Positions 45,091 to 54,363 are shown, counted from the first letter of the stretch. The stretch is DNA of 54,513 nt from an uncultured Muribaculaceae bacterium (GCA_964384115.1 CAYLJU010000007.1:1-54513), one strand, 5' to 3'. A program made the numbers and translations. The notes: generated by a model not told the origin, from the letters alone.

Positions 45091-47508
45091 TTATTTTCCA
45101 TGCTTAGCTTGTGCAGCAGCTTTTTCACGTTCATGACGCCTTACAACATCACTTCCACCATATGATTTGCTAACTATATCAGCTCGATCTGCATATTTTT
45201 TAGAATTTTCGCCAACAAATGTCTCAAGATAGTTCGCCGCACTTGTATCAATAGTTCCAAAAGTATGGCCTACGCCCATAATGGCAGCCTCACCATATAC
45301 ATTAAGATTTGAATTAATATTCGATACAAGTTGTTCAGCCATATGACCAGATATTTCATCATGATAATTTCCAGATGCATCTCTTTGAACCATCCATTCA
45401 GCAGCTGCCTGACCTTCAATAAATTTTTTCTTAATATTCAAGCCACGTTCCCACTCAGCTATTCTAGCAGCATACTCTTCTCTTTGAACATCAGTCATTT
45501 TAGAAGTATCAATTTCTTTCGCAGAATTGTATGCTGCAAGTTCAGTTTTATAATCACCTATTGAATACTCAGCGTTTTTAGATGCCCTATACTTGCCAGT
45601 TGCAGCATCGTACATTTGGAAAGTAGCAATGCCACTAGCATTTCTTCCAAATAATTGATCTCCAGTTCCAGACTTATTATAAAAGTCCCTTATACTTCGA
45701 GAAGAAGCAGCACTAAATGAAACATCTGTGCCATTTTTTTTCATCATTTCACCACCGGCACGTGCATATAGTGCGTCAACACTTTTCTTTAAACCAGAAG
45801 TTGTATCAATAACATTCTTATCTATATCAGCCGGAGTTGGTACTCCCATTGCCATAGCAGCACCAGCAGATAATCTTCCACCCAAAGTAGTACCAACATT
45901 ACTAGCAGCAATCCTACCACTTCTAGCCATATTTTCTCTAGTATTGCTTGTTATATCATGGATAGACTTAGCACCTTTTTTAGCACCACCAGTCAAACCA
46001 TGTACAGCAGTATCAGCTCCACCAGTTATAGCTCTTCTAAGTGCTTCTCCTCTACCAGCACCAGCACTTCTAGCACCTCTATAAGCAGCAAGTCCACCAC
46101 CTATAGCACCAGTTGCAAGTCCAGCAGCACCACCTAAAGCCATACTAGCAATTCTATTATCACCTATTCTCTTAAGTGGATTAAGACTAAATTGACCTTT
46201 AACATCAATTCCAAACGCTTTTCCGATCATTTCTGGAATTTGTTTAACAAACAAAAGTATACCAAGTATCATAAATACTTGAAACCAAGTACTAGTATTT
46301 TGTGAACCAGCAACACCTTCACCAGCTCCAAATATAACATTAATTAAAAATACCCCAAAGTAAACAGTAGCAACTCTAACAAACAAATCAACATAAGTTT
46401 TAAGTGATTCTTTTACCCACCAATTAAGTGACTTTTTATCACCTTTAGAATCACCAGGCTCAATATTTAAAATTATTGGAATAGGAGCAATAATTTGTAA
46501 GAAACAAAGTTTAACGTTACGAATAGCAACATCAAAACAGAAATTTAAAAATAGTAAAGCTAAAAATCCACCAGCAATTGTTGAAACAATAGCAGTATAA
46601 TTAATAACATGCTGATTTCCATAAGTTGCATTCAAAACGTTCGGATCAGTTAATAAACCAAAATTATACCTTTGAGAAGCTATATAAAACATAGTTCCTA
46701 TTTCTGCAGTAGAGTTATTGCTATTCTTATCATCCACACTTATAGCATTCAAAGCATTAACACATTTAGCAATTTTGGCTTCTTCTTTACTTAAAGATTT
46801 ACCATTTTCACCATCAGATTCATTGAGTTTATTACCATCAGGATCAATTTTTAAATTATCATTATAATAATATAAAATATTACCACATGGAGAAAGTTCA
46901 GTAATTGATAAATTAGGTGAATAAAAAGCACTAAAAGTCAAAAAAGATATTGCTTGCCCATATGAAGCAGCATTAAAAGAATCATTATTATTTTTATCGT
47001 TATTCATCCCCATTATTAAATTACCAATAACATTGCTATCCATAATATAATTTTGAAGTGCAAAAGCTCTATTAAATATCCATGGAACAGATACAATTAA
47101 AGCAAGAGAAACAGCTAAATTGGTAAGTAATTTACTAGTTCCCTTCTCCATTCCATCTGGATTAATAATATATTTAATAAAAGCAAAAGCTAATCTAAAT
47201 AACATAAAAATACCAAGTAAAGTATAAAGCCTCTGTGATGCAGATGCTAGATTTAAAGAGCTTAGTAAAGAACTCGAAGAAACTTCATAAAAAATACTAT
47301 ATGCCCAAGATGAAATTGAATAAACTTGTGTATCAATAAAAATTCCAACTGTACGTAGTAAACCAAGTATAGCTTCGTTAGAGCCTGTTACTAAATAAGA
47401 TACACCCCAAGTAGCCACACCTGCAGCAGCAAGACCAAGTAAAATTGTTCCAATAGCGCCCCTTTGATTAAATTTTCTTCTCATTTTTTCACCTAACTTT
47501 CCAAACAT
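45091..47508 (-). CDS. VirB6/TrbL-like polytopic membrane protein (TcpH/PrgH analogue) with a Gly/Ala-rich segment and a C-terminal soluble domain
   Basis: Has at least six hydrophobic helices in the first ~440 aa, then GGAAGLATGAIGGGLAAYRGARSAGAGRG..., then a ~250-aa hydrophilic tail. It sits next to the VirB3/VirB4 genes. Confidence 0.55.
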   Translation of the reverse strand: MFGKLGEKMRRKFNQRGAIGTILLGLAAAGVATWGVSYLVTGSNEAILGLLRTVGIFIDTQVYSISSWAYSIFYEVSSSSLLSSLNLASASQRLYTLLGIFMLFRLAFAFIKYIINPDGMEKGTSKLLTNLAVSLALIVSVPWIFNRAFALQNYIMDSNVIGNLIMGMNNDKNNNDSFNAASYGQAISFLTFSAFYSPNLSITELSPCGNILYYYNDNLKIDPDGNKLNESDGENGKSLSKEEAKIAKCVNALNAISVDDKNSNNSTAEIGTMFYIASQRYNFGLLTDPNVLNATYGNQHVINYTAIVSTIAGGFLALLFLNFCFDVAIRNVKLCFLQIIAPIPIILNIEPGDSKGDKKSLNWWVKESLKTYVDLFVRVATVYFGVFLINVIFGAGEGVAGSQNTSTWFQVFMILGILLFVKQIPEMIGKAFGIDVKGQFSLNPLKRIGDNRIASMALGGAAGLATGAIGGGLAAYRGARSAGAGRGEALRRAITGGADTAVHGLTGGAKKGAKSIHDITSNTRENMARSGRIAASNVGTTLGGRLSAGAAMAMGVPTPADIDKNVIDTTSGLKKSVDALYARAGGEMMKKNGTDVSFSAASSRSIRDFYNKSGTGDQLFGRNASGIATFQMYDAATGKYRASKNAEYSIGDYKTELAAYNSAKEIDTSKMTDVQREEYAARIAEWERGLNIKKKFIEGQAAAEWMVQRDASGNYHDEISGHMAEQLVSNINSNLNVYGEAAIMGVGHTFGTIDTSAANYLETFVGENSKKYADRADIVSKSYGGSDVVRRHEREKAAAQAKHGK

Positions 47509-48200
47509 TTAATTGCTTCAACATCAACATAATTATTTATAAGTCCAATTATAATATTAATTATAACTGGTATAAGTAAAATAATAACTAAAGCAATTAT
47601 TCTTCCTTTTATATTTTTAAAAGCTTTTTTGCTATCTAAATCTTTAGAAACCAATAATTTATAAACATCTGTAATACATAATATAATTGTTATACTTACA
47701 CAAGCAATTTCTAAATAACCAAAATATTCATTTAATACATCCTTAAATTTTTTGTCAATTAAATTACAATCATCAATAATAGTCAAATCATCTCTTGATT
47801 GAATTTTACTACCAACAACAAATACATTTTTTTTAATTTCAATTTCTGTTTCTAGGTTTAAACTATACATTGTATTTTTTCCAACATATTCTTCACCACT
47901 TTTAATAGCTTCATATAAATCTTCAGCATAATTCGCACAAACATCATTTATAGTTTTACCATTTTGAGTAGTCAAACTTTTAATGGTATCATATCCACCA
48001 CTCAAAGCTTCTAAATTACCATCAGCATATTCGATAATTGCGACCCTTTCAAGATTACTACATGCACCAATAAATAGATCATATGAAGAATTTAATTCGT
48101 AAAAAACTTTTTGATACTCAGAATAAGTAATTTCATTTTTATCAGCATATACATTGCTTATAAAAGCAAATACTAAAATTAATAATATAATTTTTCGCAT
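47493..48200 (-). CDS. Secreted paralogue 5 (235 aa): ectodomain plus C-terminal VirB2-like Cys-bracketed TM hairpin
   Basis: Signal peptide ...FISNVYA|DK. The C-terminus is C-x20-ACVSITIILCITDVYKLLVSKDLDSKKAFKNIKGRIIALVIILLIPVIINIIIG...KC. Confidence 0.6.
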   Translation of the reverse strand: MRKIILLILVFAFISNVYADKNEITYSEYQKVFYELNSSYDLFIGACSNLERVAIIEYADGNLEALSGGYDTIKSLTTQNGKTINDVCANYAEDLYEAIKSGEEYVGKNTMYSLNLETEIEIKKNVFVVGSKIQSRDDLTIIDDCNLIDKKFKDVLNEYFGYLEIACVSITIILCITDVYKLLVSKDLDSKKAFKNIKGRIIALVIILLIPVIINIIIGLINNYVDVEAIKCLES

Positions 48201-48274
48201 AATTCACCTATAGGAAATCTATCATAATAAATTATAACATAATAATCATAAATTTGCTATATATTTTATAAATA

Positions 48275-53456: not shown

Positions 53457-53963
53457 TTACCATTTTCTATCTTCATTATTTGTATCATTCTCAATACATT
53501 CAACGTCTCCACCGCTTCCAGTAAAGAAAGTCTTAACGCAGCCTAAAATTTTAGATTTTCCACTAGAATCAGGCAAAATACTTACAACAAATTGAACAAG
53601 AAAAAATACAAAAAATACAATAACACCATACATTACTCTTTTAACAAGAGCATCCCAACCTTTTTTCATTTCTTCTTCTTTTTGACTTGCTGCAGCTTTT
53701 AACAAATCTATCATTCCCATAATAATTATCACAATGGGAACACAAATTTTAAGTAAATTATAAATATCATGGATCATTAATGCTAAACCAGCAGGAATAT
53801 CACAAATCGTAGCAATACCACCTTTAGAATTACACAACTCAACAGACATACCACCCACACCATCTACTGCTACTTGATTTTTATCTACAACAGCTAATAC
53901 ATTAGAAAAATTAACAAAAAATGAAAAGCCTAAAACTATAATAAACATTAAAAATTTTTTCAT
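53457..53963 (-). CDS. Short VirB2/TrbC-like pilin candidate (168 aa)
   Basis: The start is the ATG at 53963, after AGAAAGGA. Signal peptide MKKFLMFIIVLGFSFFVNFSNVLA, then C..C, then PIVIIIMGMIDLLKAAASQKEEEMKKGWDALVKRVMYGVIVFFVFFLVQFVVSIL...C. This is two helices joined by a basic loop. Confidence 0.55.
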   Translation of the reverse strand: MKKFLMFIIVLGFSFFVNFSNVLAVVDKNQVAVDGVGGMSVELCNSKGGIATICDIPAGLALMIHDIYNLLKICVPIVIIIMGMIDLLKAAASQKEEEMKKGWDALVKRVMYGVIVFFVFFLVQFVVSILPDSSGKSKILGCVKTFFTGSGGDVECIENDTNNEDRKW

Positions 53964-53979
53964 ACTTATAAATCCTTTC

Positions 53980-54363
53980 TCAACAATTATTAGCGCCAAT
54001 AAACTTACAAACGCAATCAATTATACCATTATCACCAGTAGCATTAGATATTATTCCCATAAGAAGCTGAACAATTGCAACTACAAAAAATACAATTGCA
54101 GCAGTTATACATCTACTAAGTAAATTTTTTTGACCTTTTTTAATATTATCATCCTTTTGGCTTGCTACTGCTTTTCCCATATCTAGCATACCTAAAATTA
54201 TTAATATTATAGGAACAACTATTTTAATTAAATTAACAACTGTACTAATAATATTAATAAAAGGTATTAAATACTCATTACTACAAATAGCATTTGTATC
54301 AAGGGCATAAACATTATTAAATCCAAATAAAACTATAAATAAAATCAAATAAATAAATTTCAT
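53980..54363 (-). CDS. Short VirB2/TrbC-like pilin candidate (127 aa)
   Basis: The start is the ATG at 54363, after GAGGT. Signal peptide MKFIYLILFIVLFGFNNVYA|LD, then a Cys, then PIILIILGMLDMGKAVASQKDDNIKKGQKNLLSRCITAAIVFFVVAIVQLLMGII...CVC. It has the same module as the six downstream genes. Confidence 0.55.
   Translation of the reverse strand: MKFIYLILFIVLFGFNNVYALDTNAICSNEYLIPFINIISTVVNLIKIVVPIILIILGMLDMGKAVASQKDDNIKKGQKNLLSRCITAAIVFFVVAIVQLLMGIISNATGDNGIIDCVCKFIGANNC

Follow-up and report, generated by a model that had tools for sequence, protein, structure and literature searches.

The DNA analysed here, referred to throughout as the window, is a stretch of 54,513 nucleotides deposited under the name of an uncultured Muribaculaceae bacterium (GCA_964384115.1, CAYLJU010000007.1:1-54513). 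It carries an array of seven minus-strand genes (G1–G7, 47493-54363; Table 1), which probably encode membrane-hairpin subunits of a type IV secretion system (T4SS), most of them with large extracellular domains. As described in an earlier note on this DNA, the seven reading frames are consecutive and have the lengths given there, with two short forms (G1 and G2) and five long forms (G3–G7). Their spacing was less uniform than the note had claimed, since the intergenic gaps from G1 to G7 are 16, 34, 4, 7, 1 and 74 nt, and the range of 1–7 nt thus holds for three of the six junctions (4, 7 and 1 nt) and fails for the other three. A Shine-Dalgarno-like sequence precedes each of the seven genes, and the stop-codon context quoted in the note, AGGAGGTTAGTATG, was found at 49673-49686. 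Scanning for promoters gave no excess over shuffled sequences in this AT-rich DNA, and Rfam and tRNA scans of the window found nothing. Because a terminator-like hairpin lies directly upstream of G1, and the orthologous arrays of relatives also have a G1 orthologue as their first gene, the array opens its transcription unit, as had been proposed.

A MAFFT alignment, together with hydropathy analysis, showed an N-terminal signal peptide and a common C-terminal module in all seven proteins, in agreement with the earlier description, with C27, K64, K76 and R84 (G1 numbering) invariant in the module. Comparison of G1–G7 with one another by BLASTP gave E-values of approximately 1e-5 to 1e-22, and a hidden Markov model (HMM) of the hairpin matched the array proteins with E-values of 1e-30 to 1e-35 and nothing else in the window; judged by these similarities, the paralogy of the seven genes is far above chance. 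Identity of the other members to G1 was 21–39% in the alignment. G1 is the best-conserved member of the array, with more than 200 relatives at E <= 0.001 that, among the matches listed, were mostly 50–80% identical. The proposed signal-peptide motif, N(V/I)YA with cleavage before D, is exact in G3 and G7, is found in G1 only up to the cleavage site and appears in G4 as VYA before D without the Asn, and G2, G5 and G6 have other A-x-A-like sites.

Hydropathy and charge analysis, on which the topology calls are based, predicted the same layout in all seven proteins, namely a signal peptide, a first transmembrane (TM) helix, a loop and a second TM helix. The loop contains four to six Lys/Arg residues and has a net positive charge in every member, and such a positive-inside loop combined with a signal peptide places the loop in the cytoplasm and the parts before helix 1 and after helix 2 outside the cell. 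The N-terminal domains must, on this predicted topology, be extracellular. All seven proteins have the topology of VirB2/TrbC-type pilins (signal peptide, two helices, short basic loop, both termini outside), while the mature size of such pilins (~70–120 aa, hairpin only) fits G1 (~107 aa) and roughly G2, and not G3–G7 (235–466 aa). Monomer modelling of G1 with AlphaFold2 (AF2; 65 sequences) yielded a confident helical hairpin, with antiparallel helices at residues 33-68 and 71-109 and a predicted local distance difference test score (pLDDT) of 85–90.

A further common trait of the module is a Cys on both outer sides of the hairpin, taken as at most about 35 residues before helix 1 and at most about 30 residues after helix 2, which was present in 120 of 123 distinct family members and in 120 of the 121 distant long forms described below; the chance expectation for such a flanking pair, estimated roughly from typical Cys frequency, is approximately 17%. 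Since both positions are predicted to be extracellular and adjacent in the hairpin, a disulfide may tie the two ends together. In T-pilin and RP4 TrbC the ends are joined by head-to-tail cyclisation, to which a Cys staple could be a parallel, offered here as an analogy only.

The profile searches proposed in the earlier note brought the module close to the known T4SS pilin families, all below threshold. PF18895 (T4SS_pilin) matched six of the seven array proteins with E-values of 1.4e-4 to 0.58 (10.7–22.3 bits; 4.6e-4 for G2, 8e-4 for G3 over residues 359-422, 2.3e-4 for G7 and the lowest value for G5), PF18895 was the best or sole Pfam match of five of the proteins, no PF18895 match was found for G4 in the Pfam scan, and G1 had weak matches to both PF18895 and CagC (PF16943). 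Among 65 short-form relatives, PF18895 matched 38 at E <= 0.01 (best 4.6e-6), CagC matched 15 at the same cut-off, and TrbC/VirB2 (PF04956), the family which the note had named, matched a single one (E 0.0067); no other Pfam family came near the frequency of PF18895 or CagC. One relative has a precomputed PF18895 match, and PF18895 also matched the C-terminal end of distant long forms, which places the family, by these scores, at the edge of the PF18895 model. In NCBIfam, the best matches to the hairpin were families from Mycoplasma integrative and conjugative elements (ICEs; E 3.3e-7 to 1.6e-4, all sub-threshold), with the "Mbov_0395 family pilin-like conjugal transfer protein" at 3.4e-5 (G5) and 1.6e-4, and the MMCAP2_0566 family at 3.3e-7 on G7. 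As the matches are consistent though singly sub-threshold, and the positional evidence is strong, we conclude from the sequence comparisons that the hairpin is a remote member of a loose VirB2/CagC/TraB/PF18895 group of T4SS hairpin proteins.

The positional evidence is that the array adjoins VirB6-, VirB3- and VirB4-type genes and thereby occupies the VirB2-type position of a T4SS cluster (Table 1). The VirB6-like gene lies upstream of the VirB3- and VirB4-type genes as in the Bacillus thuringiensis plasmid pBMB68. Its listed ATG overlaps G7 by 16 nt without a Shine-Dalgarno sequence, and the true start is probably further downstream because orthologues align only from residue 36. No direct family match was obtained for the 114-aa VirB3/PrgI-like protein; in pBMB68, as in a plasmid (CP074574.1) of the Mycoplasmatota isolate zrk4, the corresponding position is taken by a gene annotated as PrgI. 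For the 191-aa protein, which is 93–95% conserved in the genus-level clade, an orthologue has a precomputed weak match to PF26593 (TraC-like), and the pBMB68 counterpart weakly matches TraC_F_IV. The 1417-aa hydrolase is, by its predicted domains, a functional VirB1 analogue, and orthologues of the 244-aa lipoprotein sit downstream of the operon in relatives. The coupling-protein gene is found 34 kb from virB4, between dnaJ on one side and, on the other, RmuC and an adjoining gene for a Fic/DOC-domain protein (4000-5004, plus strand). A Fic homologue with 29% identity lies inside the hairpin-gene array of another species (L016, around 4148), and the Fic protein is a possible T4SS substrate or toxin.

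Table 1. Features of the array and of the secretion genes in the window, with identities to orthologues in related species
Feature	Position	Strand	Basis or remarks	Identity to orthologues
Terminator-like hairpin	54431-54450	-	ends preceding transcription unit, directly upstream of G1	
G1, short form, 127 aa	53980-54363	-	signal peptide and two-helix hairpin	68-71%
G2, short form, 168 aa	53457-53963	-	longer extracellular N-terminal stretch and longer C-tail	51-57%
G3, long form, 444 aa	52088-53422	-	signal peptide, variable N-terminal domain, Cys-containing helical stalk module, hairpin	42-52% (G3-G6 together 39-56%)
G4, long form, 429 aa	50794-52083	-	alignment; hairpin HMM E 5e-31	39-46%
G5, long form, 369 aa	49677-50786	-	alignment; PF18895 E 1.4e-4	within the G3-G6 range
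G6, long form, 466 aa	48275-49675	-	beta-rich domain 19-170, helical domain 175-358, hairpin 376-451	within the G3-G6 range
G7, minimal long form, 235 aa	47493-48200	-	stalk module and hairpin, without variable N-terminal domain	58-61%
VirB6-like polytopic membrane protein, 805 aa	45091-47508	-	~7 TM, large loop; weak NCBIfam pLS20_p028 and Mbov_0396; TM prediction; position	37-70% (range with 332-aa protein and hydrolase)
VirB3/PrgI-like small membrane protein, 114 aa	44729-45073	-	TM prediction; position only	82-83%
Soluble protein, 191 aa, TrsD-like (split VirB4 N-terminal domain)	44206-44781	-	by position	94-95%
VirB4-type ATPase, 594 aa	42422-44206	-	PF19044, AAA_10, DUF87	95-98%
Membrane protein, 332 aa, fast-evolving	41341-42339	-	two predicted N-terminal TM helices	37-70% (shared range, as above)
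Membrane-anchored cell-wall hydrolase, 1417 aa	37019-41272	-	M23 and SpoIID	37-70% (shared range, as above)
Predicted lipoprotein with C-terminal TM, 244 aa	36288-37022	-	last gene of cluster	
VirD4-type coupling protein, 732 aa	5620-7818	-	PF02534 E 8.5e-56	

Four Cys residues were invariant in an alignment of the C-terminal ~200 aa of the five long forms. The motif (L/F/M)E(S/T)xY(L/Q)xG(F/Y)xxLT that the earlier note had pointed out was found in G3–G6 and in degenerate form in G7; only the clade of the window has the stalk module that carries the LESxYLxG motif. The AF2 model of G6 (mean pLDDT 76.9) resolved a beta-rich part, a helical part and the hairpin, and G6 has about 25 orthologue clusters. 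The fold search which had been suggested for the ectodomains was run with this model as a whole, and Foldseek gave no match below E 0.2 in PDB or BFVD. Likewise, Pfam contained no domain for any ectodomain tested. The ectodomain-plus-hairpin architecture is widespread: searching 1.84 billion representative sequences with a stalk-plus-hairpin profile in HMMER returned 4798 clusters at E <= 1e-3, 414 of them at E <= 1e-10. Such an exhaustive search of representatives was needed, since repeating the word-indexed search, now with the long-form profile, yielded few additional sequences. Among the best 150 of the 4798 clusters, 144 were new representatives, and 121 of these were long forms of 201–1027 aa, all with the hairpin at most 40 residues from the C-terminus and with ectodomains that fall into at least 57 groups unrelated by BLASTP. 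The 1027-aa long form stems from a Hadza gut contig that repeats the operon layout of the window, with a short form, the long form and genes for VirB6-like, VirB3-like, TraC-like and VirB4 proteins and a CHAP hydrolase in this order. Long forms were also compared between clades as a test for a single subfamily, which gave identities of 25% for long-long, 24% for long-short and 32.5% for short-short pairs. No description of the long-form architecture was found in the literature searched, the coverage of which is incomplete, in keeping with the failure of the earlier note to recognise it as a described family.

Within the clade of the window, every member of the array has a single, positionally matching orthologue, and G1–G7 are, as judged from this orthology, old paralogues and not recently amplified or recombining cassettes. 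An antigenic-variation repertoire, one of the roles suggested for the array before, is for that reason abandoned, the paralogues being positionally orthologous in related species. All reading frames were intact in all relatives examined. The identities to orthologues (Table 1) are accompanied by non-synonymous divergences (dN) of 0.02–0.03 for VirB4 as compared with 0.30–0.57 for the long forms, so that the ectodomains evolve 10–20 times faster than VirB4, and the distal domains are the fastest-evolving part of the locus. The comparison of dN/dS (omega) between ectodomain and hairpin that had been asked for gave approximately 0.5–1.2 for the distal domain, 0.3–1.0 for the stalk, 0.17–0.6 for the hairpin and 0.04 for VirB4, values that are rough, as the synonymous divergence (dS; 0.5–1.3) is near saturation and the alignments, at 30–50% identity, are poor in the distal parts. 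The gradient of omega from the distal domain towards the membrane is robust across these sequences, and fast distal evolution is as expected of exposed recognition surfaces.

The distribution of the operon was assessed by scanning one genome per GTDB species with the 191-aa protein, which located it in 50 species-level genomes, all of uncultured gut bacteria from humans (including Hadza), rabbit, goat, deer and other animals. Most of these loci are labelled "Bacilli", and the others include Clostridium sp. CAG:628, Mycoplasma sp. CAG:611 and uncultured Tenericutes; the closest named relative is Firmicutes bacterium CAG:884, with a VirB4 98% identical to that of the window. Four of the 50 loci, from bins assigned to Muribaculaceae or Bacteroidaceae, nevertheless carry the same Bacilli-type operon at 51–60% identity; these contigs are probably mis-binned or mislabelled. 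Genomes with CAG names of this type may belong to the orders RF39, RFN20 or ML615J-28, and no mention of a T4SS was found in the literature searched on these three orders. The family count in related genomes that the earlier note had called for was obtained with the hairpin HMM, which detected 142 members in the 50 species, 68 short forms and 74 long forms of up to 734 aa, with the hairpin always C-terminal. The arrays were further compared in the 28 loci for which 9 kb or more was available upstream, 27 of which have one to seven detected hairpin genes upstream of VirB6; a short form was present in 26 and a long form in 21 of the 28. The most common arrangement, found in ten loci, is one short form and one long form immediately upstream of VirB6, while two short and five long forms occur only in the genus-level clade of the window and two short and four long forms in two other loci.

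Comparison with distant species also indicated how the locus is inherited. In many of them, an orthologue of the coupling-protein gene lies directly downstream of the operon, followed in five loci by an orthologue of RmuC, which points to one ancestral chromosomal site that was split by rearrangement in the lineage of the window; here the coupling-protein gene was retained after the rearrangement and now stands among dnaJ, dnaK and RNase R. Similarly, orthologues of the window genes at 20765-21690 (GerQ, LemA) are found upstream of the operon in three loci. VirB4 is 67–74% identical across these distant species, as compared with 60–67% for the flanking RmuC. A distant, fully covered locus on a 539-kb contig (L045) again showed housekeeping flanks and neither a relaxase nor an integrase within 20 kb. 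At 12431-15175 of L045, a gene for a 914-aa protein with a prepilin-type N-terminal methylation motif is found between VirB4 and the coupling protein, in place of the M23 and SpoIID hydrolase.

These data bear on the alternative that the locus is part of an ordinary ICE, in which the long forms would be mating-pair adhesins or exclusion proteins that track the recipient range. VirB4, a VirD4-type coupling protein and a hydrolase do constitute a standard conjugation set, the nearest plasmid VirB4s are those of conjugative Firmicutes plasmids, and the zrk4 plasmid has a pair of one short and one long form. However, neither a relaxase nor an integrase was detected in the window among the open reading frames (ORFs) scanned, which covered 39 of the 40 non-antisense ORFs of at least 100 aa upstream of the array as well as the array itself and included several without a family match. 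The G+C content is uniform at 23–33% across the window, with the operon equal to its flanks. Housekeeping genes lie on both sides, and those that come after the operon are Fur-rubrerythrin, YabG, glutamate synthase, a penicillin-binding protein, Rnf subunits, GerQ, DivIC, LepA, HrcA, GrpE, DnaK, DnaJ, RNase R and RmuC. A search of 72,556 plasmids with the array-region DNA gave no match, nor did a protein search of plasmids with G1. The recurring chromosomal neighbours in distant species, the divergence of VirB4, about as slow as that of RmuC, and the coupling-protein gene kept after the rearrangement argue for vertical inheritance of a domesticated T4SS over an ICE, which we regard as very unlikely. 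In place of an ordinary conjugative element, the locus would be a chromosomal, relaxase-less T4SS that is, from these comparisons, apparently vertically inherited.

The reading which we hold to be probable, with greater confidence in its homology and context part than in the whole, is that the seven genes encode hairpin subunits, some with surface-exposed variable domains, of such a chromosomal system of the Gram-positive MPF_FATA-like kind in an uncultured lineage of gut Bacilli. The system is assigned to this class by the nearest plasmid VirB4s, which are less than 30% identical and come from plasmids of Enterococcus, Bacillus, Staphylococcus and Spiroplasma. The shared module comprises a Sec signal peptide followed by a hairpin whose two ends lie outside and whose basic loop is cytoplasmic, with a Cys at each outer end. 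The short forms would be core subunits, counterparts of pIP501 TraB and of VirB2, with G1 as the candidate core; they would associate with the VirB6/VirB3/VirB4 translocon and may build an extracellular conduit. In the long forms, the same hairpin would serve for docking or anchoring and keep a helical stalk outside the cell, to which G3–G6 would add a variable distal domain that probably contacts or recognises a target surface; such proteins would resemble an adhesin or a VirB5-like minor or tip pilin in function more than a major pilin. The retained coupling protein, the recurrent adjacency of RmuC and the neighbouring Fic gene allow either DNA or protein as the substrate.

Several observations weigh against this interpretation. 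The PF18895 scores of the array proteins are all under the gathering threshold of 26.6 bits, and the CagC match of G1 reaches 15.6 bits where the cut-off is 27.9; moreover, unrelated membrane families reach similar E-values, as two-helix hydrophobic hairpins draw spurious profile matches. A short-form profile matched nothing among PDB sequences at E <= 10, and a Foldseek search of PDB with the G1 model returned generic helical matches at E > 1 and no pilin, which is weak negative evidence as the bare hairpin is a poor query. Alignments with hhalign were not significant between the short-form profile and pIP501 TraB (E 0.22), nor between the family profiles and the short and long forms of the zrk4 plasmid (E 0.05–0.2). 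Some species carry one to three short forms only, from which it follows that long forms are not required for the machine. The omega values, apart from being rough, may reflect weak constraint and not diversifying selection. Finally, the analysis consists of sequence comparison and monomer models, which do not demonstrate membrane exit or polymerisation. The pilin-like subunits with variable ectodomains of the earlier note thus gain from the remote family matches, the context, the topology and the fast ectodomains, and lose from the fact that every match is sub-threshold and no solved pilin was matched.

The view that Gram-positive T4SSs lack proteins of this type is too strong. No pilin homologues were found for MPF_FATA (Guglielmini et al. 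2014; PMC4027160), and according to a December 2025 review, Patescibacteria are the only exception to the absence of VirB2 and VirB5 from Gram-positive T4SSs (PMC12857230). In TraB of pIP501, however, a signal peptide is followed by two antiparallel TM helices that are connected by a short, conserved loop in the cytoplasm, with both ends facing outwards; transfer depends on this protein, which has been recovered from both membrane and wall fractions and brings down further channel proteins in pull-down experiments (PMC9083827). TraB of pIP501 and TrsB of pGO1-type plasmids (NCBI "CagC family type IV secretion system protein") resemble the window proteins in topology, in heading a Gram-positive T4SS operon ahead of genes for VirB3-like, TrsD-like and VirB4 proteins, and in a Pro in TM2 that is conserved in TraB and in the long forms. 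Unlike the array genes, they are single-copy, with 101–114 aa and without an ectodomain, and TraB passes the CagC model (for the copy on pRE25, E 1.3e-15 and 58.1 bits, with TrbC/VirB2 at 0.0025), whereas the window proteins reach at most 15.6 bits. Similar proteins are encoded on the two plasmids used above for comparison. In pBMB68 (L056 9649-10029), a 126-aa "hypothetical protein" with signal peptide and hairpin is encoded directly upstream of TrbL-PrgI-x-VirB4, and in zrk4 (L055 6640-9439) a 112-aa short form is followed by a 781-aa long form upstream of the same set. All three are sub-threshold PF18895 matches, by which alone, and weakly, they are linked to the family, as the family hairpin HMM did not detect them. 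A hairpin component may be general in MPF_FATA systems but overlooked.

Given the likeness to TraB, the hairpin could also be solely an anchor or T4SS docking module, in which case the long forms would span the wall as static scaffold or surface proteins, in place of sortase-anchored adhesins, and nothing would polymerise. TraB has been proposed as a recruitment factor interacting with channel proteins (PMC9083827), Gram-positive T4SS membrane proteins with large ectodomains may form the wall-crossing part (PMC12857230), and the related orders RFN20 and ML615J-28 are reported to be without sortases (PMC10868615), which would apply to the host if it belongs to one of them. G7, consisting of stalk and hairpin alone, would also fit such a role. 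On the other hand, an anchor by itself gives no reason for the retention of up to seven divergent copies, each with its own orthologue, and it leaves the much faster evolution of the distal domains than of the stalk without explanation. It overlaps largely with our preferred reading of T4SS hairpin subunits, from which it differs on assembly only, and we consider it rather unlikely as the full account.

A close parallel to that preferred reading is offered by Patescibacteria (Southlakia epibionticum, TM7x; PMC12102498, PMC12857230). Their T4SS, which has been called unique among monoderms as essential and possibly pilus-forming (PMC12857230), was described by Quiñonero-Coronel et al. 2025 as chromosomal, mostly relaxase-less and MPF_FATA-related, with TrsD, PrgI/VirB3, VirB6 and a distant coupling protein, and with arrays of 2–11 divergent VirB2-like genes detected by PF18895 and PF04956 (PMC12102498). 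In both cases, a monoderm organism with a reduced genome carries a chromosomal MPF_FATA-like T4SS, near which no relaxase was detected (here among the ORFs scanned) and the coupling protein of which is often encoded at a distance from virB4. Both have a TrsD-like gene next to virB4, genes for a peptidase or lysozyme further downstream and tandem arrays of divergent PF18895/VirB2-like genes, averaging ~25% identity in Patescibacteria, with seven genes here and one to seven in relatives. The two differ in that the host here belongs to a Bacilli (Firmicutes) lineage with the sporulation genes GerQ, YabG and SpoIID, and in that the Patescibacteria arrays, compared here by their description, are described as small pilins, whereas five of the seven proteins here and 121 of the best 144 relatives have ectodomains of ~100–950 aa. 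On this comparison, the present locus is a system of that kind from a Bacilli lineage, extended by ectodomain-bearing members.

Other known systems share part of these traits. The VirB2/TrbC/CagC pilins of diderms have the same topology and a gene next to VirB3 and VirB4, and the modal set of one short and one long form upstream of VirB6 parallels a major pilin and a tip adhesin (VirB2 and VirB5). No sequence or fold match to the solved diderm pilins or VirB5 was detectable, and VirB5 has no membrane hairpin, whereas here an adhesin-like domain and a pilin-like hairpin are combined in one polypeptide. The tandem VirB2 genes of Bartonella and Anaplasma (cited in PMC12102498) are likewise several divergent copies in a host-interaction T4SS, and were interpreted as antigenic variation or broadened binding (PMC12102498); those, however, are small pilins of diderm pathogens, unlike the ancient, position-conserved and mostly ectodomain-bearing paralogues of the array. 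The Mycoplasma ICE families (Mbov_0395, MMCAP2_0566 and Mbov_0396) gave the best NCBIfam matches and come from a related wall-less branch of Bacilli, and for Mbov_0395 the NCBI name already is "pilin-like conjugal transfer protein"; they differ in being on mobile ICEs, in matching at only 23–30 bits where the cut-offs are 40–90, and in that MMCAP2_0566 and Mbov_0396 are polytopic VirB6-like proteins and not proteins of ectodomain and hairpin.

If the short forms polymerised, they could form a true T4SS pilus that crosses the wall, as has been suggested for Patescibacteria, with the long forms as minor or tip subunits with varied heads. Such a structure would agree with the pilin-family matches of the hairpin, the Patescibacteria-like array of divergent paralogues, the pairing of one short and one long form reminiscent of VirB2 and VirB5, the large wall hydrolase in the operon and the Cys pair, which could tie the hairpin ends. 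It has to contend with the lack of similarity to any solved pilin, with TraB of pIP501, the characterised relative by topology, which fractionates with membrane and wall and is not known to build pili (PMC9083827), and with N-terminal domains of 250–950 aa per subunit, which are hard to fit into a VirB2-type lattice except at the tip. That the array members form a pilus is therefore unlikely in our estimation. Equally doubtful is the more far-reaching proposal that a widespread lineage of uncultured human and animal gut Bacilli, like Patescibacteria, domesticated a Gram-positive conjugation machine into a core T4SS without a relaxase, which would build a wall-crossing, pilus-like structure from disulfide-stapled VirB2/TraB-like subunits, with modular headed pilins (ectodomain and hairpin) as a fast-evolving set for the recognition of partner cells. 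If it were true, a pilus-bearing T4SS would be known from Firmicutes for the first time, together with a new pilin class, and it would suggest a life by contact-dependent exchange or uptake of DNA, nutrients or effectors such as the neighbouring Fic protein.

Hairpin subunits of a T4SS, the interpretation preferred here, would already place Firmicutes-derived gut bacteria alongside Patescibacteria, at present regarded as the one exception to a general lack of VirB2-type subunits in Gram-positive T4SSs (PMC12857230). They would add a large unannotated architecture of variable ectodomain and pilin-like hairpin, and would connect the essential but unexplained TraB of antibiotic-resistance plasmids with the pilins of Patescibacteria. 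The family is thereby a candidate answer to how Gram-positive T4SSs cross the wall and choose their targets, and may offer a handle on the lifestyle of an abundant uncultured gut lineage.

Two further observations concern the remainder of the window. Spore-related genes are present in this genome of 26% G+C, namely GerQ at 20765-21109, YabG at 34908-35651 and the SpoIID domain of the hydrolase at 37019-41272. A mix of sporulating and wall-less species has been reported in these orders (PMC10868615), which fits the occurrence of spore genes beside relatives labelled "Mycoplasma" and "Tenericutes". In addition, a 687-aa ORF at 23465-25528 on the minus strand, for which no Pfam match was found at E <= 0.001, overlaps by eight bases the start of the next gene downstream (22840-23472, minus strand), which encodes a 210-aa protein with a borderline match to S24 peptidases.

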